Shown here: positions 37,409 to 59,334 of the stretch, one piece after another
How positions within the stretch are numbered: position 1 is the stretch's first letter
Layout of the letters: each line of letters begins with the position of its first letter
Source: an uncultured Thermoleophilia bacterium
Lineage (GTDB): Bacteria; Actinomycetota; Thermoleophilia; Gaiellales; Gaiellaceae
Direction of reading: 5' to 3'
Assembly (NCBI GenBank): GCA_963785875.1
Contig: CAWAWV010000006.1
Span: 53,590 to 117,589, forward strand
Length of the DNA stretch: 64,000 nucleotides
Notes under the pieces: generated by a model
What the model saw: the letters and a program-made list of their open reading frames with translations, nothing else
What the model was told of the DNA's origin: nothing
Database searches by the model: none
Position numbers and translations under genes: made by a program

Positions 37409-37416
37409 CGTCCTCC

Positions 37417-38450: not shown

Positions 38451-38454
38451 ACCC

Positions 38455-41073: not shown

Positions 41074-42564
41074 TGACCGACGACGGAAGCAGGCCGTCGA
41101 GGATCAGCTCCTCGACGAGCAGGACTGGACGCGGGAAGATCTTCAGCGACGGCTGGGTCGACGCGCCCAGACGATCGAGACGATCGAGCCGGCCACGGGC
41201 GAGGTGCTGGGACGGCCGGCGTCGCCGACGCCGCCGCGGTCGCGCGGCGCCGCGAGTCGGCCGCCGCGCGCCCAGCGCGAGTGGGCGGCGACACCGATGG
41301 CGAGCGGATCGCGATCGTGCGCCGGGCCGGCCAGAGCTGCTGGAACGCCACCGCGCCGAGATCAGCGGCTGGATGGTCCGCGAGTCCGGCGGCATCGACG
41401 GCAAGGCCGACGTCGAGATCGGCGCGTCGATCGGCCAGCTGGAGCAGGCCGGCAGCCCTGACTCGCACCCGCTCGAGCAGAGCTCGCCGTCGCCGACCCC
41501 GGGACGGACGAGCGATGGCGCGGCGGGTCCCGATCGGCGTCGTCGGCGTGATCACCCCCTGGAACTTCCCGCTCGTGCTCGCGATGCGCTCGGTCGGCCC
41601 GGCGCTCGCGCTCGGGAACGCGGTCGTGCTGAAGGCGAGACCTGAACACGCCGCGTCAGCGGCGGCGTCGTGATCGCGCGCATCTTCGAGGAGGCCGGGC
41701 TGCCGGCGGGCGTCCTGCACGTGCTGCCCGGGCGGCGCCGAGGTCGGCGCAGGCGCTCGTCGAGGACCCGAACGTCCGGATGATCTCGTTCACCGGGTCG
41801 ACGGCGACGGGCCGCATGGTCGGCGAGACCGCCGGCCGCAAGCTGAAGCGAATGGTGCTCGAGCTCGGCGGCAACTGCCCGCTCGTCGTGCTCGAGGACG
41901 CCGACATCGAGGCGGCCTCGTCGGCCGGCGCCTGGGGCTCGTTCCTGCACCAGGGCCAGATCTGCCTCGCCGTCGAGCCGCCACCTCGTCCACGAGAGCA
42001 TCGTCGAGGAATACCTCGCGGCGCTGGCCGAGCGGGCTCAGCGCCTCCGGTCGGCAACCCGGCGACCGAGGCAGGTCGCGCTGGGGCCGATGATCAACGA
42101 GAAGCAGGTCGAGCGGGTGAAGCGGATCGTCGACGAGACGGTCGCGGCCGGCGCCACGGTCGTCGCCGGCGGAACGCCACGACGGCCTGTTCTACCCGCC
42201 GACCGTGCTGCGCGGCGTGCCCCGGGATGCGCGGCGTTCACGAGGAGATCTTCGGCCCGGTGGCGCCGGTCACGACCTTCACCGACGACGACGAGGCGGT
42301 CGAGCTCGCGAACGCGACCGAGTACGGGCTCGCCGCGGCGGTGCAGTCGGGCCAGCCCGAGCGCGCGGCGGCGGTCGCCGAGCAGCTCGACGCCGGCATG
42401 GTCCACGTCAACGACCAGACGGTCAACGAGGAGCCGCCCGCGCCGTTCGGCGGCTTCAGGTGCTCGTAGCAACGGCGGCCATTTCGGCGGCGTCGCCAAC
42501 TCGAGCTCTGGACCGAGTGGCAGTGGATGACGACCAGGGAGAAGGCGGAGCCGTTCCCGTTCTA
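41073..42564 (+). pseudogene. NAD(P)-dependent aldehyde dehydrogenase (paralog 1), multiply frameshifted
   Basis: ATG 41073 shares one nt with the GMC stop (TGATG). GAAGGAGAG lies upstream. Blocks present: [99 protein letters not shown] and the tail WQWMTTREKAEPFPF. Confidence 0.85.
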
Positions 42565-42570
42565 GGCCGC

Positions 42571-42971
42571 TCACGGGTCGGGGACGTTCAGCTCGACCCG
42601 GAGGCCGTTCGGGTCGGTGACGTAGAGCTGGCGGAAGAGGCCCGGCACCTCGTTCGCGACGGCGGCGACGCCGGCCGCCTCGAGCCGCGCGGCGAGCTCC
42701 TCGTAGCCCTCGCGCCGGAACGCGACGTGGTCGACGGGGCCGCCGGCCGGGCCAGGCCGAGCGCTCGCGGCACGCCTGCGTAGTCGGCGCGGTCGGCGAC
42801 GTGCACGCACGGCTCGCCGCCGAGCGTCAGCCAGAAGCCGCGGGAACGGGAGCGGCGGCCGCTCGTCCGCTCCTCGAAGCCGAGCGCGTCGCAGTAGAAG
42901 GCGCGCGTCGCCTCGAGGTCGTCCGTGAGCACGAGCACGTGGTGGAGCCGCTCGGGCGCCTCAGCCGCCAC
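42571..42971 (-). pseudogene. VOC-family (glyoxalase-fold) protein, one frame break
   Basis: ORF 42588..42971 gives RLHHVLVLTDDLEATRAFYCDALGFEE. ORF 42571..42810 gives VDHVAFRREGYEELAARLEAAGVAAVANEVPGLFRQLYVTDPNGLRVELNV. Confidence 0.7.
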
Positions 42972-44074
42972 CTTCAGCCGCGCCAGCCCGTAGGCCTCGA
43001 GCGCGGCCAGCAGCTCGCGGTGCCCGAACGCCGAGCACGGCGAGGCGAAGCCGACCGCGCTGCGGCGGCTGGAAGACGAGGTGGTGCGCGGCGAACGCCT
43101 GGATCAGGCCCGTCTGCAGGTAGGCGCCCTGGCCGTGCGACGACGACCTGCACCGAGTCGAGGCTGCCGCGCGCCGAGACGACGTCGATCGTGCGCTGGC
43201 GGCGGCGGTTCTCGCGCGGCGGCGTGCCCGCCTGCACCGAGTCGGCGATCTCCGCGAGCACTTGCTGCTGCTCCTCGGCGGCAGCGGCCGGATCTTCTCC
43301 TGGTAGTCGCGCTGCCCGGCGACGACGTTCTCCATCAGCGAGCGGTCGAGCAGGCCGCCGAAGGCGTAGACGTTCGCGATCCGCGGGTCGTCCTTGAACC
43401 AGACCGGGTGCGGGAAGCCGCCCCACGGCAGCGCGAGCCGCGTCCGGAACTCGCCCGGGATCAGCGCCTCGATCGTCGTCACCGGCGGCCACTCGACGTA
43501 CTCGTTCTCCTCGAGGTAGATCGACTCCCACTGCAGCTGGCCGAAGATCGTCTGCGTCGAGCCGTAGGTCGGCATGCCCATGAACATCGAGAGCACCTCG
43601 ACCGTGTCGATGCCGGGCGCGTGCTCCTGCGCGACGCGGATCGCGGCCTCGGCCGTCGCGGACATGTACGCCGTCGCCGGCGCGACAGCAGCCCCGCCTC
43701 CGCGAACTGCTCGTGCCAGCGTCTCGCGGACGCGCCTCACCCACGGCGTCTCGCCGCCCGTGTCGACGTAGTGGCAGCCGGCGGCGAGGCACGCCTCGAT
43801 CACCGTGTCGCCGTAGTAGATGCACGGGCCGACGTTGTTGCAGACGACCTTCGCGCCCGGAACAGCTCGGTCAGCTCGTCGACGTCGTGGCCGACCTGGA
43901 CGACCTCGTAGTCGGCGGTCGAGATGCCCGGGCACGTGGTCGAGCACGTCCTGGATGCGCGCGCGCGTCGCGGCCGGCGGCGACGAACGGGACGTTGTAC
44001 TCGCGCAGGAACTCGACCGTCAGGCGGCCGGAGAAGCCGCTCGCGCCGTAGACGACGACGGGCCTGTCAGACAT
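42961..44074 (-). pseudogene. Saccharopine-dehydrogenase-like NAD(P)-binding protein, frameshifted
   Basis: Starts at ATG 44074 and reads MSDRPVVVYGASGFSGRLTVEFLREYNVPFVAAGRD. ORF 42961..43947 gives KVVCNNVGPCIYYGDTVIEACLAAGCHYVDTGGE and ALPWGGFPHPVWFKDDPRIANVYAFGG. Confidence 0.7.
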
Positions 44075-46056
44075 GCGGGTCTGTCCTTTCTGCGTCGCGG
44101 GCGCCGGTAGCGACGAACGGCTCGATCGCAGCCGGGTCGACGAGCGCGTCGCGGCTGACGACGTCCGCGACGGCGGCGCCGGTGAGGATCCGCTTGACCG
44201 GCAGCTCGAGCTTCTTGCCGGTGAGCGTGCGCGGGATCGCCGGCACGGCGAGGATCGTCGTCGGGCGCGTGCCGCGGCGAGAGGCGCGGCGCGGAGCGCG
44301 TCCGCGATGCGCGCGCGCAGCGTCGTCGTCGAGCTCGACGCCGTCGCGCGAGCACGACGAACAGGATCAGCTCGTCGGTCGCCTCGAGGTGCGACGACGA
44401 GGCTGTCGAGCGACCTCGTCGCAGCTCCTCGACGACGCCGTAGAACTCGCTCGGTGCCGAGCCGGACGCCGCCGCGGTTCAGCGTCGCGTCGGAGCGGCC
44501 GGTGATCACGCAGCTGCCGCGCTCGGTGAACATGATCCAGTCGCCGTGCCGCCAGACGCCCGGGTACTGGTCGAAGTAGGCGGCGCGGTAGCGCGTCGCC
44601 GTCCGGGTCGTTCCAGAAGCCGACCGGCATCGACGGCATCGGCTGCCGGATCACGAGCTCGCCGAGCTCGCCGACGACCGGCTCGCCGTCGAGGTCGAAG
44701 GCGGCCGCGTCGACGCCGAGGCAGCGGCGCGGCGATCTCGCCCGCGTACACCGGGCAGCAGCGGGTAGCCCTGGACGAGCCGGTGCAGACGTCGGTGCCG
44801 CCGCTGCCGACGTTGAGGAAGACGTCGGGGCCGAGCTGCTCGTAGAGCCAGTCGAAGCCCTCGAGCGGCAGCGGCGAGCCCGGCCGCGCCGATCGTGCGC
44901 AGCGACGAGAGGTCGAAGCTGCGCGCCCGGGCTCGAGCCCGTCCTTGCGGCAGGCCATCATGAACGCCGGGCTCGAGCCCGAGCATCGTCGGCGCGCGTC
45001 TCCTCGGCCAGCCGCCACTGGTACGACGAGGTCGGGGTAGGCCGGGTTGCCGTCGATCATCACGATCGAGGCGCGGCGCGAGCAGCGTCGAGACGAGCGC
45101 GTTCCACATCATCCACGCGGTCGTCGTGAACCACAGCAGCCGGTCGCCGCGCCGGAGGTCCCAGCAGAGCGCCGTGGTTCTTAGGTGCTCGAGCGAGGAT
45201 GCCGCCGTGGCCGTGGACGATCGCCTTCGGCAGGCCGGTCGTGCCCGAGGAGAAGAGCACGTACAGCGGGTGCGCGAACGGCACGGGGTCGAACTCGAGC
45301 GGCCCCGGCTCGGCGAGGAGCTCGTCCCAGCCGATCGCGTCCGGGAGCGCGTCGTCGGCGCCGCCGGCGTAGCGGCACGTGGACGACGCGCTCGAGCGTC
45401 GGCAGCCGCTCGCGGACCGCGGCCACCTGCTCGCGGCGGTCGATCGGCCTTGTCGCCGAAGCGGTAGCCGGCGACCGCGAGCAGCACCTTCGGCTCGAGC
45501 TGGCCCGAGCCGGTCGAGGACGCTGCGCGGCGCCGAACTCCGGCGGCGCAGGTCGCCCAGATCGCGCCGAGGCTCGCGGTCGGCGAGGAACGCGACGAGC
45601 GTCTCGGGGATGTTCGGCAGGTACGCGACGACGCGGTCGCCCCGGCCGACGCCGAGCCGCTGCAGGCCCGCGCGCGCCGCGCGCGACCTGCTCGCGCAGC
45701 TCGCCGAAGGTCAGCTCGAACGGCCCGCGCGTCTGCGAGCGGGCGACGACGGCGCTGCGCCCGGTGTCCTCGTCGCGCCGAGCATGTGCTCGGCGTAGTT
45801 GAGCCGCGCGCCCGGGAACCACTCGGCGCCCGGCATCTCGCCGCCGCCCGAGCACGCGCTCGTACGGCGTCGTGCGCCCGGACGCCGAAGAAGTCCCAGA
45901 GCGAGCCCCAGAAGCCCTCGAGGTCGGCGACCGACCACTGCCAGAGCGCGTCGTAGCGGCAGGTGAGGCCGCGGTCGAGCGCAGGAACGTGAGGTACCGC
46001 GCGAGCTCCGAGTGCTCGCGCGCGTCCTCAGTCGGCGTCCAGAGGACGTCTGCCCT
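44068..46056 (-). pseudogene. Acetoacetyl-CoA synthetase-like acyl-CoA ligase (ANL superfamily, beta-keto-acid type), multiply frameshifted
   Basis: Blocks present: YDALWQWSVADLEGFWGSLWDFF, EMPGAEWFPGARLNYAEHML, PFAHPLYVLFSSGTTGLPKAIVHGHGGIL (AMP motif), LLWFTTTAWMMWNALVS, GFDWLYEQLGPDVFLNVGSGGTDVC, WRHGDWIMFTERGSCVITGRSDATLNRGGVRLGT and LTGKKLELPVKRIL. Confidence 0.8.
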
Positions 46057-46059
46057 GGT

Positions 46060-47082
46060 TCACGGCACGAGGACGGCGCGTCCGGTGATCTCGCCCTCGC
46101 GCAGCCGGTCGAGCACCTCGTTCACCTCGTCGAGCGGATGCGTCTCGGTCCGCAGCTCACGACGCCGCGCCGTGCAGCTGCAGCAGCTCCCAGAGGTCGA
46201 TCCAGCTGCCGACGAGGTTGCCCGCGACGGTCGCCTCGCCGACCACGAGGCCGCCGAGGGAACGGAGACCAGGCCGCCGTAGCCGACCAGCGAGTAGAGG
46301 CCGCGCCGCGCGCGAGCATCGCGCAGGACGCTGCGTGTGTGGCGTCCGTCGCGACGAAGTCGAGCACGACGTCCGCGCCGGCGCCGCCGGTCAGCTCGCG
46401 CACCGCCGCGGCGACGTCGCCTCGCTCGCCGAGCACCTCGTCGGCGCCGAGCTCGCGCGCCAGCCGGCGGCGGCGCTCGTCGGTGTCGATCGCGACCACC
46501 GCGCCCGCGCCGAGCGCGCGCACGAGCTGGAGCGCGATGTGCCCGACGCCGCCGACCCCGATGCACGACCGCCGTCGTCCCGGGCTCGAGCCGCGGGAGC
46601 GAGCCGCTTGACGGCGTGGTAGGCGGTCAGGCCGGCGTCGGCGTGCGGCGCGACCGCGGCCGGCTCGACGCCGTCGGGCAGCGGCAGCAGCGAGCGCTCG
46701 TCGACGAGCACGTACTCCGCGAAGCCGCCGTCGCGGGTCAGGCCGGTGAACTGGTGCCGCTCGCAGTGCATGTCGAGCCCGCGCCGGCACGGGACGCAGA
46801 GGCCGCAGCTGTACGGCGGGTAGACGAGCACCGCGTCGCCCACGGCCGCCGCCGTGACGCCGTCGCCGACGGCGTGCACCCAGCCCGCGTTCTCGTGTCC
46901 GAGCACGACGGGGAGCGTCAGGCCGGCCGGCTCCATCAGGCCCTCATCGCGTGCAGGTCGGTCGCGCAGACGCCGGCGCCGCCGACCCGGACGACGACGT
47001 CGCGGGGACGGACGGGCTCGGGCTCGGGCCGCTCGACCAGCTCGAGCGGCCGGTGGTACGCGGCGAGGAGCGCCGCCTTCAT
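46060..47082 (-). pseudogene. Zinc-type medium-chain alcohol dehydrogenase, frameshifted
   Basis: Starts at ATG 47082 and reads MKAALLAAYHRPLELVERPEPEP..VVVRVGGAGVCATDLH. Further blocks: LPVVLGHENAGWVHAVGDGV, CGLCVPCRRGLDMHCE, and the tail HPLDEVNEVLDRLREGEITGRAVLVP. Confidence 0.8.
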
Positions 47083-48527
47083 GCGCGCTCGCGCGGCGCC
47101 GAGGTAGCCGGCCGCGTCGGCGTCGAGGTGCTCGGCGAGCCGGTCGCGAGCGCCATGATCGTGAGCGAGGGGTTGACCGAGAGCGTGCGCGGGACGAGCG
47201 AGCCGTCGCCGACGAACAGGCCGCTGCACCTCGTGCGACTCGCCGTTGCGGTCGACGGCCGAGCGGGCCGGGTCGTCGCCCATCCGGCAGCTGCCCTGGA
47301 CGTGCGTCGACGCGATCCCCGTCCAGGCGACCTGCTTCGCGCCCGCGCGCTCCAGCACGCGTGCGGCTGAAGTCGAGCGCCGCGTCGAGCCGCTCGTGCT
47401 CGACCGGCTCGGAAGTCGACGTGGAAGCCCTCGTTGCCGTCCTCGTCGAGCGACGACCGACGCGTTGTTCTCGTCGCTGACCATCGCGAGCACGCCGTTC
47501 CAGTAGCGGAAGCCGCGCACCGCGTCGACGAGGCGCTGCCCCCAGAACGGGCCGCTCTCGTCGCGCAGGGTGGTCGCGAACGCGATCGGGTCCTGGATCG
47601 TGGTCGCCTCGATCACGAAGCCGCCGTCCTCGTCGTGCTGGTGCGTCATCGAGTGGGCCGTGATCGGGTAGACCATGTGCGCGTCCTGCGGCTCGTCGAA
47701 GAGGCCGTAGACGAGCCGCACCGGATGGAGGCCGAGGTGGCGTGCCGATGGCCGGGTTGCGCAGACCGGAGCGCAGCAGCAGCTGCGGCGTGTTCAGCGC
47801 GCCGCCGGCGACGACGACGACGCCCGCGCGCGACGACGTGGCGCTCGCCCGCCTCGTCGACGTACTCGACGCCGGTCGCCCGGCCGTCCTCGACCAGCAC
47901 GCGCTCGACCGCTGCGTTCGCCCGCAGCTCGAGCAGCGCCTCGCGCCAGCGCGTCGGGATGTACGTGTTCATCGTCGACTTGCCGGCGTTCGTCGGGCAG
48001 CCCTGCAGGCAGGAGCCGCACTTCATGGCAGTTCGGATCCGTGTACGCGGTACCGCCTCGAGCGGGGCGCCGAGCTCGCGGAACGCGGCCTCGACCGTGT
48101 GCACGCTCTTCGGCCAGTCGGTGCGCTCGCGAACGCCGAGCACCTGCTCGACGCGGTCGTAGTACGGGGCCAGGTCGGCCGCAGCGAACGGCTCGCCGCG
48201 CTCGTTCGTGAGCCCGGTCGCCGCGTGCCACTTGGCGAGGTCGTGCCCGTCCGCGCGCAGCGCGACCTTCGTGTTGATCGTGGTCGTGCCGCCGACGCAG
48301 CGGCCGCCGAGGAGCGCGACGGCGTCGCCGTCCGGCAGCGGCGCGAAGCGCAGCGGCCACCAGATGTCGTGGTTCGCCTTCGCCTCCCAGCGCGTGAAGT
48401 CGGCGGCCGTGCGGTGCGGGCCGCACTCCAGCAGCAGCACGTCGCGTCCGCGCTGGCCGAGCTCGCCGGCGACAACGCCTCCGCCCGCGCCCGACCCGAC
48501 CACGACGACGTCGAAATCGCTCTTCAT
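47079..48527 (-). pseudogene. GMC-type FAD-dependent dehydrogenase large subunit (gluconate-2-dehydrogenase alpha-like), frameshifted
   Basis: ATG 48527 overlaps the small-subunit stop (ATGA). Blocks present: MKSDFDVVVVGSGAGGGVVAGELGQRGRDVLLLECGPH, LLGGRCVGGTTTINTKVALRA, MKCGSCLQGCPTNAGKS, and the C-terminal THVQGSCRMGDDPARSAVD. Confidence 0.8.
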
Positions 48528-48899
48528 GCGATCCCGAGGAACGACCAGTCCTTGCGGAGCACGGGTCGCGAGCGGCGAGTTGAAGTCGATCTCGGCGAAC
48601 GCGCCGCGGCGCGTCCCGGCCGGGCGCGACGAAGTCGCTGTAGTACGCCTCGATCGCGAGCGCCCGGACGAGCGCGAACTCGGGCGTCCGCTCGTGCTCG
48701 GCGAGCGCCGCGGCGCCCGCAGCGGCCGCCGCGGCGAGCGTCGTCGATCGCGCCGAGCGCGAACTCCCGCGACTCCGGCGGCATGCGCCGCAGCGCAGCG
48801 TCGACGTAGACGACGGGCCGAGCGCTGCCCGAGCCGGGGACGATCAGCCTCGCAGAGCGCCTCGAGCGACGCGGCGCGCGCGTCGTCGAGGGTCTTCAC
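48524..48899 (-). pseudogene. Small subunit for the GMC dehydrogenase (gluconate-2-dehydrogenase subunit-3-like), frameshifted
   Basis: GTG 48899 overlaps the livF-type stop (GTGA). The product reads MKTLDDARAASLEALCEA.VPGSGSARPVVYVDAAL. Further blocks: FALVRALAIEAYYSDF, and the tail KDWSFLGIA in ORF 48524..48784. Confidence 0.55.
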
Positions 48900-49666
48900 T
48901 CGCTCTCCTCGACGAGCGCCTCGACCCGCTCGTCGTGCTCGCGGAGCAGGTACGCGGAGTGGAGCCGCTCCGGGTGCTCCTTCAGCTCCTGCGCGGTGCC
49001 GTGGTAGCGGATCCGGCCGCCCTCGAGCACGTACGCGGTCTCGGCGACGGCGAGCGCGACGTGCGCGAACTGCTCGATCAGGAGGATGCCGACGCCCGCT
49101 CGCGCGACCGCGCTGCAGCGTCGGGCATCAGGCGCTTGACGACCACGGGCGCGAGGCCGAGCGAGAGCTCGTCGACGAGGATGAAGCGCGGCTGCGAGAC
49201 GAGCGCCTGGGCGAGCACGACCATCTGCTGCTCGCCGCCCGAGAGCGAGCGCGCGCGGCGCCTTCCAGCGCTTCTCGAGCTCCGGGAAGAGCTCGAGCGC
49301 GTACGCGATGCCCTCGCTTCGCCTCGTCGCGCCCGAGCGCGTAGGTCGCGACGCGCAGGTTGTCCTCGACCGTGAGCTCGGGCAGCAGGCGGCGGCCCTC
49401 CGGGACGATCGCGACGCCGGCGCCGCGGACCTGCTCGGGCCGCCGCCGCGTGAGGTCCGGTCGCCGAGCAGCACCCGGCCGCCGCTCGGGCGCAGCACGC
49501 CGCCGACGGCGAGCACGAGCGACGACTTGCCGGCGCCGTTCGGGCCGAGCAGCGTCGTGACCGCGCCGGGGGGATGTCGAGCGAGACGTCGTGCAGACGA
49601 CCGGGCGTCCGCCGCGAGACGACGTCGAGCGCCTCGATCCGCAGCGACGTGCCGCCGCTCGCTCAC
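48896..49666 (-). pseudogene. LivF-type ABC ATP-binding protein (second importer), frameshifted
   Basis: Blocks present: [92 protein letters not shown], and the tail [38 protein letters not shown]. Confidence 0.8.
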
Positions 49667-50382
49667 AGCGTCGCTCCTCGGTGCCGAGGTAGGCCCGCAT
49701 CACGTGCTCGTCGCGGAGGACCTCGGCCGTCGGGCCGAGGCGATCAGCTTGCCGAAGTCGAGCACCGCGGTCGTCGTGCAGCAGCCGAGACGAGGCTCAT
49801 GTCGTGGTCGACGAGGATCACGAGCGCGCCGAAGTGCTCCGGGATCTTCTGGATCACCTGGGTGAGGTGCTCCGGTCTCCTCGTCGGGCAGCCCGGCGGC
49901 CGGCTCGTCGAGCAGCACGACCCGCGGCTTGCCGACGACCGCGCGCGCGACCTCGACGAGGCGCCGGTCGCGCGCGCCGAGGCCGCCGACCTTCGTCTTC
50001 GGCGACACGTCGAGGCCGACGAACTCGATCGCGGCCGAGCACGTCGGCGCGCCGCGACGGCGCGCTTGGCGCCCGAGTGCTCGTGGATCATCGCGACGTT
50101 GTCGAAGACCGAGAGCTGCTCGATCGCCATCTCGGTCTGGAACGTGCGCCGCAGGCCCCAGCGCGCCCGCCGGTAGTCGGCCATCTTCAGCAGGTCCTCG
50201 CCGAAGGCGGTGATCGAGCCCGCCGCCGGCTTGACGAAGCCGCTGAGGACGTTGAAGAACGTCGTCTTGCCCGCGCCGTTCGGGCCGATCAGGCCGCAGG
50301 TGCCGCCGGGGAAGACGACGCTCATGTCGTCGATCGGCGTGACGCCGGCGAAGCGCACGGTGAGGCCCTTGACCTCGATCAC
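49663..50382 (-). pseudogene. LivG-type ABC ATP-binding protein (second importer), frameshifted
   Basis: GTG 50382 overlaps the permease stop. Blocks present: IEVKGLTVRFAGVTPIDDMSVVFPGGTCGLIGPNGAGKTTFFNVLSGF, RRTFQTEMAIEQLSVFDNV, VVLLDEPAAGLPDEE, ALVILVDHDMSLV, and the tail VMRAYLGTEE. Confidence 0.8.
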
Positions 50383-51466
50383 GCGGCGGCCTCCGCCGCG
50401 GGAGGCGAGCGCCCGGACGCCGCGGGCGAGCAGCCGGCCGAGGTTCGCCATGTCCTTCGGGAACTGCTCGACGAGCCCGCCGGGCGCGGTCAGCAGCACC
50501 TGCAGCAGGCCGACGCCGAAGATGATCAGCAGGAAGTTCGGGTTCACGCCCCACTGCGCCTGGAAGAGGAACGGCAGCAGCTGGTTGAAGATGCCGGCGA
50601 CGATCGCGCCCCAGAGGCTGAAGATGCCGCCGATCAGCGCCGTCGCGGCAGCGTGAGCGAGTCCTGGGTCTGGAAGGTGATCGCGCGCGGCACGCCGACC
50701 TGCGCGGCGAGCAGGCAGCCCGCGACGCCGGTCATGAACGAGGCGAGCGCGAACGCCCACAGCTTGTAGAGCGTGATGTTCACGCCCGCCGCGAGCGCCG
50801 CCGGCTCGCTCTCGCGGATCGACGCCCACGCGCGCCCGGGCTTGCGTCGCGACGTGGGCGAGCGCGAGCAGGAACATGAGCGCGCAGACGACGACGATGT
50901 AGCGGTAGTACGCGGTGTCGCCGACTGGCCATCGACGGGCGCCGCACGGGCGGCGTGCGCGTCGTCAGGGCGCCGGTGGCCGACGCGGCCCGGTGAAGCC
51001 GCCGCCGCCGTTCGGGAAGTCGGTCACCGAGAGCACGACGGTCGTCGCGCCCGCGAACATCAGCGTGATCAGGGCGAGGTAGAGCCCCGAGAGGCGCAGC
51101 GCCGGCAGGCCGACGAGCACGCCGATCGCGCACGTGATCGCGCCCGTGGCGAGCAGCAGGAGCGGGAACGGCAGCGAGGTCGCGTAGGCGAGGCGGGCGC
51201 CGACCCAGCAGCCGACCGTGAGCAGCGCGACCTGGCCGAGCGAGATCATCCCGACGCGGCCGTAGAGGATGCCGAAGCCGGGCGCGACGACCGAGTAGAT
51301 CGCGACGCTCGTGAAGGTCGTGATCCAGTCGGCGCCCGACGAGCGTGCGGCAGGGCGAAGAGCGCGAACAGGAAGAAGGCCGCGATCAGCGTGGCCCGGA
51401 CGCCGGTCCCGCTGGATCGCGCGGGAGATCGCGCCGCGGCGGCTCGCTGCGGTGCGCGGAGCTCAC
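50379..51466 (-). pseudogene. LivM-type ABC permease (second importer), frameshifted
   Basis: GTG 51466 overlaps the livH-type stop. Blocks present: ITTFTSVAIYSVVAPGFGILYGRVGMISLGQVALLTVGCWVGARL (ORF 50965..51249) and ALIGGIFSLWGAIVAGIFNQLLPFLFQ..LLIIFGVGLLQVLLTAPGGLVEQF (ORF 49744..50877). Confidence 0.75.
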
Positions 51467-52408
51467 GGCGTCAGTTGGCCGTCCGCGAGACCGAGACGAC
51501 GCGGCGGCGCGAGAGGATAGAGCAGCGCGACGATCGCGAGCACGAACGGCGCCGCCGACCGGTAGGTCGAGACGTCGCGTAGGGCGTGAGGACCGACTGC
51601 GCGAGCCCGACGGCGAGGCCGCCGAAGAGCGTCGCCCAGAGCGAGCGCAGCCGGCCGATCAGCGCCGCCGCGAGCGACGAGATGACGAGGAACGTGAGCG
51701 CCGAGTAGTCGAGCGACGTGAGCAGGTCGGGCAGCAGGAGCCCGGCGGCGCCGCAGGCGAGCCCCGAGCCGAACCAGGCCGCCGCCTCGACCTGCGCACG
51801 GGCACGCCGAGCGTCGCGGTGATCTCGCGGTCGTTCGCGAGCGCCCGCATCGCGGTGCCGAGCTTCGTGACGCGCAGGAAGATCGCTGACCGCCGGCGGT
51901 GAGCGCGAGCGCGAGCGCGAGCGAGATGATCTGCGTCAGGTTCACGTTCGTGCCGAGCGATCGTGTAGCGGTGCTGTCGAGGTGGGGAGCGGCAGGAAGC
52001 GCGCGAACGCGCCGCCGGCCGGCGCCCGCCAGCGCCATGACGCCCGAGCAGGATCAGCGCGAGGCCCGAGCGTCCCCATCATCTTCACGAGCGGGTCGCG
52101 CCGCGCGAAGGCGGGGCCGAAGACCATGCCGTAGGCGAGGTTGCACGACCCCGCCGAACAGCGACGCAGATCGTGTAGGCGAGCCAGTGCGGCCAGCTCG
52201 TGTGGTTGACGAGGTAGTAGGCGATCAGGGCGCCCGCGGCGCCGATGGCGCCGAACGCGAGGTTCAGCACCCCGGTGGCCTGGTAGAGCACGACCAGCCC
52301 GACGCCGGAGAGCGCGTACACGCCCCCGAACGCGAGGCCGATCACGATGAACGGCTTGAGGAACTCCCAGTCGACGCCGAACACGCTGAACGCGAGCAGG
52401 TCAGTCAT
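51463..52408 (-). pseudogene. LivH-type ABC permease (second importer), frameshifted
   Basis: ORF 52085..52408 gives MTDLLAFSVFGVDWEFLKPFIVIGLAFGGVYALSGVGLVVLYQATGVLNLAFGAIGAAGALIAYY. The C-terminal half lies in ORF 51463..52038 and neighbouring frames. Confidence 0.8.
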
Positions 52409-52454
52409 CGAGGCCTCCGGGCACCCTGATCGTCATCGCTCGATGATCTCGCTT

Positions 52455-53766
52455 CTACTTGCCGGTGTTGAGCTTGAACTTCTTCTCCCAGGCGCGGGTC
52501 TGGGCGATCGCCTGGTCGACCGCCTGGAACTCGTGCAGCCGTTCCGCACGACGACGTTGCCGCTCTTGTAGTCGACGATGATGTTCGCGTTGTTCGGGAT
52601 GTGGTACGGGAGGCCGCCCGACGTAGAACGGCTTGCAGAGCATGTCCGTCTTCTGGTTCTTCAGGGCCCTGACCGCCTTGTTGTACGACTTCGCGGTGAT
52701 CGCGCCCTTGACGCTCAGCAGCGCGTTCGTCGCGAACTTCGCGTCCAGGAAGCCCATCTGCGCGAACGCCTGCGGGGCGATCTGCGGGCGCGTACTTCTT
52801 CAGCACGCTGAACATCAGCGCCGAGTCGGGGCCGACCTTCGGGTCGACGTTCGAGAACTCGTTGTCGATCCAGAGGTGACCGTCGAAGCCGGCGAGAACT
52901 GGCTCGACATGAACGTGTTCGCGATCGGGGTCGACGAGCCCCACAGCACCTTGTCGACGATGCCCTGCTGCCTCGGCGGCCTTCATGAACGCCGGGGCGG
53001 TGTCCGGGGTGAAGTCGAGCAGGATGCCGCCGCCGTCGCCGGCGAACTGGTACATCTGGAGCAGCTGCGAGTTCGCGTCCGTGACCGGCAGGTGGGTCGG
53101 GAAGACCTTGCACCGGGATGCCGGCGGCCTTCGCGACCAGTGCAGGCCGCCGTCCGCGTACGCCGAGATCGTGTCCGGCGAGGCGATCGCGAGCTTCTTG
53201 GCGCCGGCCTTGACGAGCGCCTGCGCGGCGCCGATGTTGCTGTAGCGCGGGCCGGCGTTCACCTCGACGAAGGACGGCGTGCTGTAGCACTCCGCCTGCA
53301 CGCCCGCGCCGATCACGACGTAGCCCTTGCTCTTGTAGTACTTCCAGTTCGTGCCGCACTCGGCGAAGCTCGTGTTGCCGACGATGCCGACGACCTTGTC
53401 GCTCTCGATCAGCTTCTTGGCGAGCGCCGCCTCCTGGTCGGGTTCGAGCTGCTCGCTGTAGAGGGTGTACTTGATCGGGCGGCCGTGGATGCCGCCGTTG
53501 TCGTTCACGCAGTCGAAGTACGCCGTCGGCGGCCTTGCCGATCGTCGTGAAGTCGACGCCCGGGATCAGCATGTCGATGCCGCCGATCTTGATCGGCGCT
53601 CCGGTCGCCTTCTTGCCGGTGCCCAGACCGCAGACGCCTGCGCGTCATCGCCTTCCCCTTGCCGGGCGGGCTGGCTGTGGGGGCCGCGCCTGCACCCGCT
53701 CGCAACCACGGCCGTGGCGAGTGCCCCGGCAAGCGCGGTTGCGATCAATGCCCTCCGAAACGTCAT
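52455..53766 (-). pseudogene. ABC substrate-binding lipoprotein (type I periplasmic binding fold) of the second importer, frameshifted
   Basis: GGAGGAGCGGAGG lies before ATG 53766. MTFRRALIATALAGALATAVVASGC is a lipobox. Further blocks: NDNGGIHGRPIKYTLYSEQLEPDQEAALAKKLIESDKVVGIVGNTSFAE..(ORF 52405..53508), and the tail MGFLDAKFATNALLSVKG..FKLNTGK (ORF 52455..52757). Confidence 0.8.
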
Positions 53767-53926: not shown

Positions 53927-55560
53927 CTAGGGCCGGAAGGCGCCGGTCGGCGCGATCGCGACGTCGAGCAGCAGCGGCTCGTCGCGTTCCGCAAGCGTCG
54001 GCACGACCTCGTCCAGCGCGGCCGAGAGGTCGTCGTGGGTCGAGATCCGGCGGGCGGCGCAGCCGAAGCTGCGGGCGATCGTCGAGAGCTCGAGCTCCTC
54101 GAAGCCGGGCCACGGGCCCGCTCCGCCGGCGCGCTCGGCGAGCCGGTCCATGATCGTGTAGCCGCCGTTCGCGAGGATGACGTACAGCGCGCCCGCGCGG
54201 TAGTGGGTGGCGCTCCAGAGGGACTGGATCTGGTAGAGAGCCGAGCCGTCCCCGACGATGGCCACGACCGGACGCCGGGGCAGCGCCATGCGCAGGCCGG
54301 CCGCGGCCGGGAGCGCGAAGCCGAGCCCGCCCTGCGCGGCGCTCAGGTAGCCGAGCGGCTCCCGCGCCGGTAGGCGGTCGTGGATCTCGGGCCGGTCGAC
54401 CGGGGCCTCCTCGAGCACGATCGCCTCGCGCGGGAGCCGCTCGGCGAGCGCCGCGAGCACGTGCGACGCCAGCAGCGGCTCGCCGGGCGCCGGGCGGCGG
54501 CGGGGGCGGGCGGCGGCCTGAACGCGCTCGGGCGGGGGCGTGTCGCGCTGCTCGACCCGCGCGGCGAGCGCCGGCGCAGACGGCCGCCGGCGGGGCGAGC
54601 ACGGCGAGCTGCGCGGGGCTCCGCTGGATCTCCTCCGGGTCGTCCGAGACGAGCGCGAGCCGCGTCCCCGGCCTCGGTGAACGTGCCCGGTGCGTACGCC
54701 GCCTGGCGGAAGGCGGGCGCGCCGACGACGAGGACCGCGTCGTGGGGCGCGAGCTGCTCGCGCAGCCGCTCCCGGTCGGCGGAGAGGACGCCGGCGAAGA
54801 GGCGGTGGTCCTGGGGGAAGCCGGCGCGAGCGCCGAACGCCTCCTGGAAGACGGGCGCGCCGAGCCGCTCGGCGAGCTCGACGAGCGCCGCCCAGGTCGC
54901 CGGGTCGTCCGCCCCGGCGCCGACCACGAGCGCGGGCGCCGCGGCGTCCGCGAGGAACGCGGCGAGCGTCTCGACCGCCTCGCGATCGGCGGCCGTCGCC
55001 CGCAGCACCGGCCCGAGCGCCGCGGCCGGCTCGCGCTCCTCGTCCGCGGCCTCGGCCCAGTCGTCCATCGGGACGATCACGAGCGCCGGGCCGCGGGAGA
55101 GCGCTGCGGCGTGGTAGGCGCGCTCGACGCGCGGCCGGGACGTCCTGCGCGCGCATGCGGGCTGCTCGACGCGCACCGGGTAGGTCGCCGGCGAGCCCCT
55201 CGAGGCGGCCGGCGAGGAACGGCTCGTAGGCGAGGTGACGCCGGTCCTGCTGGCCGACGACGACGACGAGCGGCGCGCGGTTGACGCGGGCGGTCGCGAG
55301 CGCGCCGACCGCGTTGCCGAGCCCCGCGGTCGTGTGCAGGAGGACGAGCGCCGGCTCGCCGCGCCCGATCGCGTAGCCGCTCGCCATGCCGACCACGGTG
55401 CCCTCGTGCAGGCCGAGCACGAAGTCGAGATCGTCGGGCAGCCCCGTCAGGAACGGCACCTCGGTCGAGCCGGGGTTCGCGAAGAGCGTCGTCAGCCCGC
55501 GGCGGCGGAAGACGTCGAACGCCGCGTCGCGGACGCGTGCGACTCGCCTGCGGTGGGAGC
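53927..55560 (-). pseudogene. Thiamine-diphosphate-dependent decarboxylase (benzoylformate decarboxylase / acetolactate-synthase-like family), frameshifted
   Basis: Blocks present: VRDAAFDVFRRRGLTTLFANPGSTEVPFLTGLPDDLDFVLGLHEGTVVGMASGYAIGRGEPALVLLHTTAGLGNAVGALATARVNRAPLVVVVGQQ, and the C-terminal TPP motif VVAIVGDGSALYQIQSLWSATHYRAGALYVILANGGY (ORF 53927..55459). The middle is scrambled and the 5' end is approximate. Confidence 0.8.
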
Positions 55561-55597
55561 GGCGGCGTCTCGGTTGCGTGGTTGGCGGTCTCGATAC

Positions 55598-56094
55598 TCA
55601 ATGGTCGAAGAAGATGGTCTGTCGCTCGCCCTGAAGGTGGATGTCGAAGCGCAGCCGCCGTCCTCGGCGTCGGCGACGAGCCGCGCGCGCTCGTCCTCTG
55701 CGAGCCCGGCGAGGACAGGGTCGGCGGCGTTCGCCTGCGCGCTCGTCGGGGAAGTAGAGCCGTGTGAGCTGATGCTTGAGCAGTCCGCGCGCGATGGACG
55801 AAGACGTCGAGGTGCGGCGCCTCGCCCGGCCGCGGCCGCGGGCTTCGAGACGACGAACGAGAAGCGCGCCGCCGTCGTCCGTGCCGCGAGCGGTGCCGCA
55901 GCGACCGGCGCTCCGTCGGCTCCCAGACCTCGACCATGCCGTCCGTGATCGGCGCTGCCGTCCCCGTCGAGGAGCTGCGCCGCGCAGCACGAGCGCCGAC
56001 GGGTCGTCCGGACGGGACGAGCTCGTTCTCGACGCGCCGGCAGAGCCCGATCGCGTAGTACGGGCCGACCGTCTGCGACGGCGTGCTTCGGCAG
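55598..56094 (-). pseudogene. pcaG: Protocatechuate 3,4-dioxygenase alpha subunit, frameshifted
   Basis: Blocks present: SQTVGPYYAIGLCRRVENELVP, DGMVEVWEP, PHLDVFVFARGLLKHQLTRLYFPDE, ANAADPVLAGLAEDERARLVA, and the tail LRFDIHLQGERQTIFFDH. No start codon is clear. Confidence 0.8.
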
Positions 56095-56096
56095 GC

Positions 56097-56832
56097 TCAG
56101 GGCTCCTCGACCGGCGTCGTGCCGCCGCCGCCGCGGCCGAGCACGATGTCCCAGCGGTAGCCGAGCGCCCAGTCCGGCTGCGTCGTGCTCGAGGTCGAAG
56201 CTCGAGACCAGCAGCTCGCGCGCCTTCGGGTCGCGGACCGAGTGGAAGATCGGGTCGAACGCGAACAGCGGGTCGCCCGGGAAGTACATCTGGGTGACGA
56301 GCCGCTGCGTGAACGCCCGCCCGAACACCGAGAAGTGGATGTGCGCCGGGCGCCACGCGTTCTCGTGGTTGCCCCAGGGGTACGAGCCCGGCTTGATCGT
56401 GACGAAGCGGTAGTTGCCCGTCGGCGTCGGTGAGGCAGCGGCCGGCACCGGAGAAGTTCGGGTCGAGCGGCGCGGGATGCTGGTCGACGACGTGGTGGTA
56501 GCGGCCGGCCGCGTTCGCCTGCCAGACCTCGACGAGCGCGCCGCGGACGGGCCGGCCGTCCTCGTCGAGCACCCGGCCGCTGACGACGATCCGCTCGCCG
56601 AGCGGCTCGCCGGCGTGCTGCCGCGTCAGGTCGTCGTCGAGCTCGTCGATCGCGCTCCTCCCCGAACACCGGCCCGGCAAGCGCGTGGAGCTCCTCGGGC
56701 AGCGACACGAGCGGCCGCGTCGGCGCGCGCAGCCGCGTCGAGCGGTAGCCCGGGTAGTCGACCTGGACCTCCGGCGCCGAAGGCCGGATCGTCCGGGAGA
56801 ACGACCGGCTCGCTCGATCGGTCCGCGCTCAC
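56097..56832 (-). pseudogene. pcaH: Protocatechuate 3,4-dioxygenase beta subunit, frameshifted
   Basis: GTG 56832 overlaps the pcaJ stop. Blocks present: YPGYRSTRLRAPTRPLVSLP, GEPLGERIVVSGRVLDEDGRPVRGALVEVWQANAAGRYHH, NYRFVTIKPGSYPWGNHENAWRPAHIHFSVFGRAFTQRLVTQMYFPGDPLFAFDPIF and WALGYRWDIVL. Confidence 0.85.
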
Positions 56833-57543
56833 GCGCCTCCCTCGTCTCGAGCGACCGGAGCGCCGCGAGCTCGTCGTCGGTCGGCGGCTCGGTGTCGCGC
56901 GACGTCGTCCGCGACCGCGAGCGGCCAGCCGGTCGCCGCGCGTGCGTCGTCGACGCGTCGCACCCGGGTGGACGTGCGTCACGAGCGCCAGCTTGCCGTC
57001 GCGCGGCTCGAGGACGCCGAGGTCGGTGACGACGACGCGCACGCGGTCGCCGCGGCTCGTCTTGAAGTCGAGCTGCTCGACGAACGCGCGCGCGCGTCTG
57101 GCGCAGCATCACGAACACGTCGCGCGACGGACGGTCGCGATCTCGGGCGCGCCGCCGCCGCCGGGCAGCCGCACCTTCGGCGTGCGCGTAGTCCCCGATC
57201 ACGGTGCTGTTCAGGTTCCCGTAGCGGTCGATCTGCGCGGCGCCGAGGAAGCCGACGTCGATGCGGCCGCCCTGGAGCCAGTAGGCGAACATCTCCGGCA
57301 CCGAGACGACGGTGTCGGCGGTCTCCGCCAGCTCGCCGTCGCCGATCGAGAGCGGCAGCTTCGGTCGGCTTCGCGCCGATCGTGCCGCTCTCGTAGACGA
57401 GCACGCAGCCCGGCGCGTGCGTGCGCCGCGCGAGGTTCGCGGCCAGGCTCGGGCAGGCCGATGCCGACGAAGCAGACGGTGCTCGTTCGTCAGCCGCCGC
57501 GCGGCGTCGACGGCCATCATCTCGTCCGCGCGTGAACGCTCAC
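56829..57543 (-). pseudogene. pcaJ: 3-oxoadipate CoA-transferase subunit B, frameshifted
   Basis: GTG 57543 overlaps the pcaI stop. Blocks present: ADEMMAVDAARRLTNE, CVLVYESGTIGAKPT, LPLSIGDGELAETADTVVSVPEMFAYWLQGGRIDVGFLGAAQIDRYGNLNSTVIGDY, VVTDLGVLEP and PPTDDELAALRSLE. Confidence 0.8.
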
Positions 57544-58358
57544 GCCGCGGCACCGCCTCTCGAGCACGTGCTCGCTGCATCCAGGCGCGTGAAGGGTCGC
57601 GGTCGCGGCTGATCGCGTCCCAGGCGACGTAGAAGTCGTTGTCGCGCTCGTAGTAGCCGTGCGCGTACGACGGGTGCGCGCCCCCGGGGACGCACGCGAC
57701 GGCGTCGATCACCCAGGAGGGCAGGACGACGCCGCCCGGCCGCGGTCGAGCTCGTCGACGATCTCCTCGACGGTCACGATCGAGCGCGTCGAGGCGAGCA
57801 CGACCTCCTTCTGGACGCCGGTGATCCCCCAGAGCTGGACGTTGCCGTCGCCGGTCGGCCTGCTGCGCGTGGACGATCCCGACGTCGGGGCGGTGTGCCG
57901 GCACGGCGGCGAGCTCCTCGCCGGTGAACGGGCAGGTGATCGCCGCGACGCGCGTGTGCGCCGACGAGGTCGGTGCCGCGCGTAGCCCGCGCAGCACGCC
58001 GAACGGCAGGCTCGCGGCGCCGGCCGCGTAGGCGGCCGCCATCCCCGCATGCGAGTGCTCCTCGAGCTCGAGCGGCGCCGGCCAGCCGTGCTCGACCGCG
58101 TCGCGCAGCCGGTGCAGCGAGCCGACGCCCGGGTTGCCGCCCCACGAGAAGACGAGCTTGCGCGGCGCAGCCCATGCCGATCAGCTGGTCGTAGATGACG
58201 TCGGGCGTCATCCGCACGAGCGTCAGGTCGCGCCGGCCCTGCCGGATCAGCTCGTGCCCGGCGGCGAACGGGATCAGGTGGGTGAAGCCCTCGAGGGCGA
58301 CGACGTCGCCGTCGTGCACCAGTTCGGAGACCGCCTCGCTGAGCGCAACGATCGGCAC
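57540..58358 (-). pseudogene. pcaI: 3-oxoadipate CoA-transferase subunit A, frameshifted
   Basis: ORF 57774..58358 gives MPIVALSEAVSELVHDGDVVALEGFTHLIPFAAGHELIRQGRRDLTLVRMTPDVIYDQLIGMGCA. Further blocks: AAYAAGAASLPFGVLRG, TGNVQLWGITGVQKEVVLAS..IVTVEEIVDEL and PGGAHPSYAHGYYERDNDFYVAWDAISRDRD. Confidence 0.8.
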
Positions 58359-58404
58359 GCGACTGCGACGCTAGGCGATGATCGGTTCGGCTGTCAAGAA
58401 CAGC

Positions 58405-58422: not shown

Positions 58423-59334
58423 TCAGAGGCCGAGTAACGAGGCGGCGTTCTCCTTGAGGATCAGCGGCCGGACCTCGTCCTTGATCGGCAGCTCGGCGAA
58501 GTCGGCGAGCCAGCGGTCGGGCGTGATCAGGGGGAAGTCGGAGCCGAAGAGCACCTTGTGCGCAGGAGGCGTGTTCGCGTACCGCACGAGGATCTCGGGG
58601 AAGTACTTCGGCGACCAGCCCGAGAGGTCGATGTAGACGTTCGGCTTGTGCAGCGCCACCGAGATCGCCTCGTCCTGCCACGGGAACGACGGATGCGCGA
58701 GCACGATCTTCAGGTCGGGGAAGTCGACCGCGACGTCGTCGAGCTCCATCGGGTTCGAGAACTTGAGCCTGATCCCGCCGCCGCCGCGGCACGCCGGCGC
58801 CGATGCCGCTGTGGCCGGTGTGGAAGAGCGCCGGCAGGCCCGCCGCCTCGATCACCTCGTAGAGCGGGTAGACGCTGCGTCGTTCGGGAAGAACCCCTGG
58901 GAGTTCGGGTGGAACTTGAAGCCGCGCACCCCGTGCTCGGCGATCAGGCGGCGGGCGCGCGGACGCCGTCGGCGCCGCGGGCCGGGTCGATGCTCGCGAA
59001 CGGGATCAGGACGTCGGCGTTCGCGGCGCGCGATCTCGGCGATCTCCTCGTTCGGGATCGGGCGCCGCTCCGGTGACCGACTGGCTGTCGACGCCGAACA
59101 CGACCGCGGCCATGTTCCGCTCCCGGTAGTAGGCGGCCACGTCCTCGCGGTCGGAAGCGCGCTCGTTGCCGAAGTACTTCGCCGCGCCTGCCCGCAGCTC
59201 CGGCCGGAAGCGGGTCGATGCCCGGTGCGCGAAACCTCGGCGTGCGTGTGCACGTCGATCGCCGTCACCCGGTCAAGGTCGATCAGGACGCCAGCCGTTC
59301 GAGTATGCGAGACAGGTGACCGATTAGTGGACAT
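58423..59334 (-). pseudogene. Amidohydrolase-2 family protein (ACMSD / aromatic-acid decarboxylase-hydrolase type), frameshifted
   Basis: Blocks present: VTAIDVHTHAEV (ORF 58852..59334), GVRGFKFHPNSQGFFPND, IEAAGLPALFHTGHSG, and DFPDLKIVLAHPSFPWQDEAISVALHKPNVYIDLSGWSPKYFP..VLFGSDFPLITPDRWL (ORF 58423..58749). Confidence 0.7.

Follow-up and report, generated by a model that had tools for sequence, protein, structure and literature searches.

Gene content of the locus

Members of the Gaiellales abound in soil; hardly any of these actinobacteria have been cultured, and little is known of the carbon sources they use. Here we describe a cluster of eleven minus-strand genes at positions 42571-53766 of a 64,000-nucleotide stretch of DNA (hereafter, the window) from an uncultured member of this group. 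The window corresponds to positions 53590-117589 of contig C6 of an assembly of 3.14 Mb in 15 contigs, with 72% G+C and 77% marker completeness. The cluster encodes an ATP-binding cassette (ABC) importer, a predicted two-subunit flavin-dependent dehydrogenase of the GMC family, a zinc-dependent alcohol dehydrogenase (ADH), a beta-keto-acid CoA ligase and two accessory proteins. We give an even chance to the interpretation that it is a conserved Gaiellales operon for funnelling lignin-derived phenylpropanoid (C6-C3) side-chain alcohols or ketols to protocatechuate.

Lists of open reading frames (ORFs) of the window, also when filtered by the G+C content of third codon positions (GC3), are useless because of frame breaks, which are discussed below. 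The genes were detected by Pfam scans on all three minus-strand frames, with stops read through as X, while the junction motifs and outer boundaries were read straight from the window sequence. The scans revealed, in order, Peripla_BP_6, two BPD_transp_2 and two ABC_tran domains, a small ORF of no known family, GMC_oxred_N/C, ADH_N/ADH_zinc_N, AMP-binding, DUF5938 and Glyoxalase:

52455..53766, minus strand: substrate-binding lipoprotein (SBP) of the HAAT/Peripla_BP_6 family (PF13458); GGAGG precedes the ATG at 53766; signal ends ...VVASGC; at least two frame switches
51463..52408, minus strand: ABC permease 1 (permH), LivH-like family (PF02653); frames -1/-3/-2
50379..51466, minus strand: ABC permease 2 (permM), LivM-like family (PF02653); a single tblastn high-scoring segment pair; GTG start overlaps the permH stop as GTGA
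49663..50382, minus strand: ABC ATPase 1 (atpG), LivG-like family (PF00005, PF12399); GTGA overlap with permM
48896..49666, minus strand: ABC ATPase 2 (atpF), LivF-like family (PF00005); GTGA overlap with atpG
48524..48899, minus strand: small partner subunit of about 120 aa, helical, without a twin-arginine translocation (Tat) leader; no Pfam or NCBIfam family; neighbour of GMC1
47079..48527, minus strand: FAD subunit GMC1 with an inserted CxxCxxCxxxCP motif (PF00732, PF05199); at least three frame switches
46060..47082, minus strand: zinc-dependent ADH, secondary-alcohol type (PF08240, PF00107); ATGA overlap with GMC1
44067..46063, minus strand: beta-keto-acid CoA ligase of the acetoacetate-CoA ligase family, HpeE-like (TIGR01217 via an intact orthologue); at least nine frame switches
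42974..44074, minus strand: NAD(P) protein of the saccharopine-dehydrogenase fold with DUF5938 (PF19362, PF03435); accessory gene
42571..42971, minus strand: small protein of the VOC/glyoxalase fold (PF00903)

Seven junctions (permH/permM, permM/atpG, atpG/atpF, atpF/small, small/GMC1, GMC1/ADH and ADH/ligase) are 4-nt overlaps of the GTGA or ATGA type. Of the remaining three, ligase/DUF5938 is an 8-nt overlap, DUF5938/VOC a 2-nt gap and SBP/permH a 46-nt gap. An earlier note, made from the letters of this stretch, had described an operon of eleven genes with these positions, strand and order, mostly joined by 4-nt overlaps. The families are indeed found as listed and the outer ends are exact, with the SBP ATG at 53766 and the VOC stop codon at 42571-42573. 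The description of an eleven-gene operon holds for its content, but ten of the eleven genes are not open as assembled and have to be stitched. The same-strand gene string is also longer, running from about 59277 down to 42571.

An intact copy and conservation in Gaiellales

A colinear copy of the cluster with 76% nucleotide identity is carried by DASUZZ010000035.1, from a short-read metagenome-assembled genome (MAG) of a Gaiellaceae bacterium of the same genus (hereafter G007). It lacks the DUF5938 gene, and all of its ten genes are open. Their nine junctions comprise four 4-nt, two 1-nt and one 14-nt overlaps, a 1-nt gap and a 57-nt gap.

A search with the GMC1 alignment, restricted to one genome per species, returned 219 relatives, of which the best 80 loci (68-100% identity) were used for mapping of 21 reference proteins; these loci are kin and the counts given below are not independent events. 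All come from Gaiellales or from unclassified Actinomycetota/Thermoleophilia MAGs, save one bin labelled as Burkholderiales (JBIQJM010000070.1), whose small-subunit and GMC1 genes (69% identity) do not overlap and lie 11 nt apart; mis-binning or gene transfer are possible explanations for this locus.

Two gene orders recur. Order 1, that of the window, runs importer, small subunit, GMC1, ADH, ligase, optionally DUF5938, and VOC, often followed by genes for a xylose-isomerase-like TIM barrel and E1 subunits. A search for conserved neighbourhoods, which the earlier note had recommended, recovers the core from permH to the ligase in 36 of the 80 loci and the succession atpF, small subunit, GMC1 and ADH in 44. 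VOC follows the ligase in 24 of the 80, while DUF5938 is rare at that position, directly following the ligase in only three. In order 2, an enoyl-CoA hydratase gene diverges from a run of small-subunit, GMC1, DUF6282 and PIG-L genes (a stretch present in 14 loci), which is met by DUF5938, Amidohydro_2 and ligase genes reading in the opposite direction, with a LigM gene beyond them reading in the direction of GMC1. Amidohydro_2 stands immediately after the ligase in 15 of the 80 loci, and in 13 the pair lies opposite LigM. The ligases of both orders fall into one clade (support 100/99) and are therefore orthologous. The cluster is thus genuine and conserved among Gaiellales of soil.

The CoA ligase and its candidate partner hydrolase

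The ligase of G007 has all three Pfam domains of its family and exceeds the cut-offs of two NCBI models, TIGR01217 (757.3 bits, cut-off 520.9) and NF002937 (877.4 bits, cut-off 639), whereas the window copy, owing to the frame breaks, scores as fragments only (e.g. 107.7 bits). The match to the acetoacetyl-CoA synthetase AacS of Streptomyces lividans (4wd1) has an E-value of 1e-205 (688 bits). In four of the five genomes searched this ligase is the sole family member over the cut-off, while the fifth (G034) has a second.

The substrate is not fixed by the model or the family name, because ligases of the HpeE type bear the same name in NCBI's PGAP annotation. In Rhodococcus rhodochrous GD02 the hpe operon ends with hpeE and hpeF (PMC9618137; PMC13101465). 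The closest characterised homologue of HpeE is the acetoacetyl-CoA synthetase AcsA2, with 42% identity (PMC9618137), and HpeF is a homologue of CouO. Both enzymes are proposed to act on hydroxyphenyl-beta-ketopropionates, which would be thioesterified and then cleaved with release of acetyl-CoA to yield vanillate or 4-hydroxybenzoate (PMC9618137; PMC13101465). In plasmid-borne clusters of the hpe type the partner ligases are annotated as 'acetoacetate--CoA ligase' and are 45-50% identical to the Gaiellales ligase, the value for Pseudomonas putida YC-AE1 being 50%. A further precedent for CoA activation of an aromatic beta-keto acid is Bal of Aromatoleum aromaticum, a benzoylacetate-CoA ligase acting together with thiolysis; the papers do not give its family. 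In the literature we found no usable acyl-pocket determinants of acetoacetyl-CoA synthetase.

A single candidate for the second enzyme of the pair was found in the source genome; it heads the same-strand gene string:

58426..59277, minus strand: amidohydrolase of the CouO/HpeF type, candidate hydroxyphenyl-beta-ketoacyl-CoA hydrolase; tblastn match of 53% to the ligase-adjacent protein of genome G030

Its orthologues in G007 and G030 are 59-64% identical to amidohydrolases of hpe clusters (P. putida YC-AE1, Rhizobium leguminosarum BT01) and of a cou cluster (Rhodococcus opacus), and one database record names such a homologue 4-hydroxyphenyl-beta-ketoacyl-CoA hydrolase. The hydrolase gene lies within 10 kb of the ligase gene in 43 of the 59 ligase-bearing loci.

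Gaiellales thus share with the Hpe systems an AcsA-family ligase and a CouO-type amidohydrolase, adjacent in order 2, in a setting that would yield vanillate or 4-hydroxybenzoate for protocatechuate cleavage; identities were measured against the plasmid clusters of YC-AE1 and BT01, and the GD02 proteins were compared by description. They differ in that the ligase and hydrolase genes of the window are 12 kb apart and in that tblastn, queried with proteins of R. leguminosarum and P. putida, detected no two-component kinase, three-part biotin carboxylase or HAD phosphatase of the hpe/acv type on the contig of the window. Elsewhere in the genome, matches to hpe/acv proteins are only 27-45% identical (contigs C1, C4 and C10) and include no HAD phosphatase. 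The keto acid would therefore come from oxidation of an alcohol and not from carboxylation of an acetophenone. Far from the window, at C1:297450-300556, lies a trio of genes for a carboxyltransferase, a biotin carboxyl carrier protein and a biotin carboxylase, which weakly resembles the hpe/acv carboxylase.

The predicted two-subunit GMC dehydrogenase

Next to GMC1, the small ORF is present in 79 of the 80 loci, and in 39 of the 43 loci with both ORFs intact its stop overlaps the GMC1 start by 4 nt. Among 300 further Actinomycetota genomes, sampled evenly, only one other, from the same class, was found to have the small protein. It matches no family in Pfam or NCBIfam, which does not bear out its earlier description as a gluconate-2-dehydrogenase-like small subunit: PF13618 (Gluconate_2-dh3) gave no match at E<=1 in the source genome or the G007 locus, and its score in genome G003 was only 12 bits (E 0.51), below the gathering score. 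A search of the PDB sequences with a small-subunit profile returned chance-level matches only, and no solved small subunit among them.

The AlphaFold model (pLDDT 88) has Foldseek matches at E>1 only, and VIA-align gives Z-scores of 4.6-5.2, which are middling for helical proteins, to 9jqa_B, 8jej_B, 6a2u_A and 8hdd_C. Four of the five best structural matches are small subunits of fructose dehydrogenase (FDH) or FAD-dependent glucose dehydrogenase (FAD-GDH), with root-mean-square deviations of 3.4-7.1 A over 79-96 aligned residues. The feature neighbours of the protein in the Atlas carry the Gluconate_2-dh3 name, with PF13618 on 13% of one cluster. In complex with GMC1 and FAD, the prediction reached an ipSAE of 0.94, against 0.00 for the best of three controls, with a pLDDT of at least 89 for the partner and contacts that agreed to at least 98% between runs. 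Of 80 solved complexes, 58 reach the ipSAE mark, as do 2 of 110 mismatched pairs, counts that hold only roughly here because our own alignments were used and the FAD ligand was included. As similar complexes have already been solved, passing this mark shows likeness rather than proof; the small protein is predicted to bind GMC1.

GMC1 of G007 scores 140 and 69 bits with GMC_oxred_N and GMC_oxred_C, respectively, while the window yields fragments. The N-terminal FAD motif (GxGxxG) occurs invariantly as GSGAGGG. The N-terminal domain also contains a ferredoxin-like motif, N-C-M-x-C-G-S-C-L-Q-G-C-P, at alignment positions 168-179, in which Cys168, Cys174 and Cys178 are invariant and Cys171 is kept by at least 90% of the 23 orthologues. 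The match of GMC1 to Pfam Fer4_7 is weak and falls under the cut-off (E 9e-4), and residues 171-173 and 179 contact the small subunit in the predicted complex. The motif suggests that GMC1 carries an Fe-S cluster and acts as a dehydrogenase rather than an oxidase.

The known 'hitch-hiker' small subunits belong to FAD-GDH of Burkholderia cepacia (6a2u, 8hdd) and to FDH of Gluconobacter (8jej, 9jqa). The Gaiellales pair resembles them in the translational coupling of the GMC subunit to a helical partner some 120 aa long, in the predicted binding and in the Cys-rich insert. Unlike theirs, the Gaiellales small protein has no Tat signal, no PF13618 match above the gathering score and no solved relative detectable by sequence, the operon has no cytochrome c subunit, and the cysteines follow a ferredoxin-like spacing, CxxCxxCxxxCP. 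The 23 aligned small-subunit orthologues begin at the helical core, without an RR-hydrophobic leader, and Pfam scans of the region and of the G007 operon detected no cytochrome families. The two-subunit dehydrogenase is likely cytoplasmic.

The ADH encoded next to GMC1 has as its best solved relatives an ADH of Aeropyrum pernix (1h2b) and ADH-A of Rhodococcus ruber, a secondary-alcohol dehydrogenase, and by its sequence it resembles aryl-alkyl secondary-alcohol dehydrogenases.

Neighbouring genes: a putative lignin-monomer island

Two genes on the opposite strand converge with the cluster, and the minus-strand string continues upstream of the importer with genes for a benzoylformate-decarboxylase (BFD)-like enzyme, PcaG/H-like proteins, a CoA-transferase and the Amidohydro_2 protein described above:

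39463..~41076, plus strand: GMC2, choline-dehydrogenase-like (Pfam GMC_oxred_N/C), convergent
41073-42565, plus strand: aldehyde dehydrogenase (ALDH; Pfam Aldedh), convergent
53927..55590, minus strand: BFD-like thiamine-diphosphate (TPP) enzyme (TPP_enzyme_N/M/C), directly upstream of the importer
55598..58361, minus strand, approximate limits: protocatechuate 3,4-dioxygenase alpha/beta-like (PcaG/H) genes and a CoA-transferase gene (Dioxygenase_C, CoA_trans; tblastn with G030/G007 proteins)

The pair of GMC2 and ALDH had been taken as divergent from the cluster. In fact it is convergent, with the facing stop codons 5 nt apart. At least 15 loci have the pair at this place, and about 17 others have GMC2 by itself there; in locus L038 both genes are intact and overlap by 4 nt. 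The TPP enzyme orthologue matches the BFD structure 6qsi with an E-value of 1e-92, and its gene precedes that of the SBP in 19 loci. A LigM-like demethylase gene lies at 27.4-28.8 kb of the window.

A precedent for the pair comes from Sphingobium sp. SYK-6 and Novosphingobium aromaticivorans F199, in which the GMC enzymes HpvZ and HpvY together with ALDHs convert beta-hydroxypropiovanillone to vanilloyl-acetate (PMC11837543); the enzymes acting downstream of vanilloyl-acetate in F199 are unknown (PMC11837543). The Gaiellales genes resemble this system in the coupling of a GMC flavoenzyme with an ALDH beside putative beta-keto-acid-consuming enzymes, and GMC2 is choline-dehydrogenase-like, as is HpvY by its description. 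GMC1, in contrast, is of a distinct two-subunit kind, and SYK-6 uses the non-homologous VceA/VceB downstream. A comparison of GMC2 with plasmids gave more than 1100 choline-dehydrogenase-like matches, among which HpvY was not identifiable. We also considered VceA of SYK-6 as an AcsA-like ligase and rejected it: it is described as an acetyl-CoA-dependent converting enzyme, and vceA and vceB together span 1.5 kb. Our literature search turned up no paper that deals with aromatic catabolism in Gaiellales.

Two further groups of genes flank the island. At 59355-60172 (plus strand) an enoyl-CoA hydratase gene diverges from the CouO-like amidohydrolase gene, as its counterpart in order 2 diverges from the small-subunit and GMC1 genes; the arrangement of hydratase and amidohydrolase recalls CouM/CouO of the beta-oxidative hydroxycinnamate route. 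On the other side, at 34430-39341 (minus strand), the cluster is followed by genes for a xylose-isomerase-like TIM barrel and transketolase-like E1 beta subunits, as in about 45 of the 80 loci. No E2 or E3 genes were seen in the stretches of the window that were scanned. These genes may serve, for example, to cleave an alpha-hydroxyketone side chain.

Proposed pathway and the acetoacetate alternative

The likeness to HpeE/HpeF, together with the precedent of HpvZ/HpvY and ALDH, leads to the following mechanism, in which we infer every substrate. The HAAT-family importer would take up a side-chain alcohol or ketol. Its side chain would then be oxidised to a hydroxyphenyl-beta-ketopropionate such as vanilloyl-acetate, by analogy with HpvZ and ALDH, by the cytoplasmic GMC1 and its Tat-less partner, the secondary-alcohol-type ADH, and the convergent GMC2 and ALDH. 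The ligase would convert the keto acid to its CoA thioester, as proposed for HpeE, and the CouO/HpeF-type amidohydrolase would cleave the thioester to vanillate or 4-hydroxybenzoate and acetyl-CoA. Finally, the nearby LigM-like demethylase and PcaHG could process the product further. Uptake followed by stepwise oxidation to a beta-keto acid and CoA activation, with aroyl-acetates among the candidates, had already been suggested from the gene families alone, and the PcaHG, BFD-like, LigM-like and CouO/HpeF-type context fits this suggestion. The accompanying statement that no described pathway has this composition was too strong, as both halves have described analogues, HpeE/HpeF (PMC9618137) for ligase and hydrolase and HpvZ/HpvY with ALDH (PMC11837543) for GMC and ALDH. 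What we did not find described is that these halves are joined to an ABC importer and to a GMC dehydrogenase of two subunits that lacks a Tat signal.

Several observations weigh against the aromatic pathway. The ligase passes the NCBI equivalog for acetoacetate-CoA ligase and is very close to the S. lividans structure, and the ligase tree is unresolved at its base, with no HpeE-type clade and no separation of functional classes. Ligases 48-53% identical to it adjoin VOC and fumarylacetoacetate-hydrolase (FAH)-family genes on Rhodococcus and Streptomyces plasmids, neighbourhoods in which acetoacetate is a plausible product. In the window itself the hydrolase gene is not adjacent to the ligase gene but 12 kb upstream, and the core operon has no ALDH. 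No characterised close relatives were found for GMC1, SBP, DUF5938 or VOC: the PDB sequence search returned no solved relative of SBP at E<=0.001, leaving its ligand unpredictable, and none of the DUF5938 protein, and Atlas look-ups with each of these two proteins returned their own families only. Neither DUF5938 nor VOC is given a step in the proposed pathway.

The principal alternative is that the enzyme is a genuine acetoacetate-CoA ligase, and that the operon converts an imported aliphatic hydroxy compound (3-hydroxybutyrate, 1,3-butanediol and 4-hydroxy-2-butanone are candidates) to acetoacetate, or salvages acetoacetate from the ring-fission hydrolases of the island. It draws on the equivalog scores, the 4wd1 match, the singularity of the ligase in four of five genomes and the FAH-linked relatives; moreover, a core with two alcohol dehydrogenases and no ALDH fits a direct step from hydroxy acid to keto acid. 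On the other hand, HpeE-type ligases share the PGAP name, in both gene orders the ligase is accompanied by aromatic genes and a CouO-type hydrolase, and no 3-hydroxybutyrate dehydrogenase, polyhydroxybutyrate (PHB) gene or thiolase was seen in the scanned parts of the window. The Gaiellales ligase is a full-length member of the family of AacS (4wd1) and Sinorhizobium meliloti AcsA2, but unlike them it appears in a context of aromatic catabolism and not of ketone-body or PHB use. Because of the FAH-linked ligases, the unresolved tree and the uncharacterised relatives of GMC1, SBP, DUF5938 and VOC, we put the conversion of phenylpropanoid side chains no higher than evenly poised, and the acetoacetate alternative we judge somewhat unlikely, though a serious possibility.

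The string of VOC, FAH family, an optional hydroxylase and 'acetoacetate--CoA ligase', found on plasmid pNit of R. rhodochrous (L100) and on a plasmid of Streptomyces sp. NBC_01136 (L104), looks like a separate aromatic module, apparently not yet characterised, that draws on the ligase family discussed here.

The importer

The importer shares with LIV-I (LivJHMGF, HAAT family) an identical five-component architecture and the same Pfam families. It differs in that the intact orthologues remain far under every Liv and Urt equivalog cut-off of NCBIfam (LivH 39.8 bits against 379, LivM 93.3 against 366, LivG 160.2 against 362 and LivF 180.8 against 441), and its SBP has no match among NCBIfam models or solved SBPs. 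By sequence the importer is therefore Liv-like at the family level only, in keeping with the caution of the earlier note, which had referred to a family named for branched-chain amino acids.

The locus could also be a mosaic, in which an ABC system for amino acids or another unrelated solute merely abuts unrelated oxidoreductases. The Liv-like family names would agree with this, as would the fast divergence of SBP, which only 13 of the 80 loci match at 45% identity or above, and its spacing of 46-57 nt from the permease gene. We regard a mosaic as very improbable, since the end of the ATPase gene runs into the beginning of the small-subunit gene (14 nt shared in G007, GTGA in the window), further overlaps link the small subunit through to the ligase, the order is retained in 36-44 loci, and the Liv equivalog cut-offs are missed widely.

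Frame breaks in the assembly

With intact orthologues as tblastn queries, permM is the sole gene that lies in one frame. The other ten are broken into 2-10 frame segments each, amounting to at least 31 frame switches in 11.2 kb. Between 42 and 54 kb every ORF falls well short of the 650 codons that the ligase should have, and the frame with the highest GC3 alternates every 300-600 nt, while the GC3 periodicity is kept inside each frame segment. Same-strand phase changes occur at 1.0-2.2 per kb on all 15 contigs. Within the window, a block at about 12-20 kb is nearly free of breaks, while in most of the stretch from 24 to 64 kb each 4 kb contains 16-26 phase changes. rpoB, an essential gene, is also split, over two frames (contig C9:59596-62925), and we therefore read the breaks as assembly indels and not as decay.

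Comparison with sequencing reads agrees with this conclusion as far as it goes. None of the sequencing runs carried more than 12% of the sampled words of this genome, no RNA run is listed among the carriers, and the four short-read runs used represent relatives of about 90% identity, so they cannot prove errors in this strain. Their contigs show 1-nt indels relative to the window at 93 places, several of which fall on mapped break sites (near 47221, 46599, 45547/45504 and 52144). With no run from the same strain a small residual chance of true decay is left, but an array of decaying pseudogenes, for which the count of frame switches in ten of eleven genes and the origin of the comparison reads from relatives might speak, is exceedingly improbable given the split rpoB, the phase changes on every contig, a marker completeness of only 77% despite 15 contigs, the contrast between the clean and the densely broken blocks and the persisting GC3 periodicity.

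Implications

Gene calls from this assembly, and from long-read MAGs of this kind, need a frameshift-aware reading. Caution is also advisable where the equivalog name 'acetoacetate--CoA ligase' has been put on enzymes with an aroyl-acetate context.

A bolder and rather doubtful proposal is that the two-subunit dehydrogenase, restricted to Thermoleophilia, cytoplasmic and made up of a GMC protein with a four-cysteine motif and a Tat-less partner without a cytochrome, starts the catabolism of lignin fragments of the beta-hydroxypropiovanillone type and is wired to HpeE/HpeF chemistry. If true, it would add a third, undescribed route by which vanilloyl-acetate is disposed of, the sort of route that is yet to be filled in for N. 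aromaticivorans, and would place the 'hitch-hiker' small subunit in a cellular setting new to it. The carboxylase-free pair of beta-keto-acid CoA ligase and hydrolase, as well as the soluble two-subunit GMC dehydrogenase, would be candidates for lignin valorisation. For Gaiellales themselves, an island that joins an importer, side-chain oxidation, HpeE/HpeF-type cleavage and protocatechuate ring fission would imply a role in the turnover of lignin fragments.

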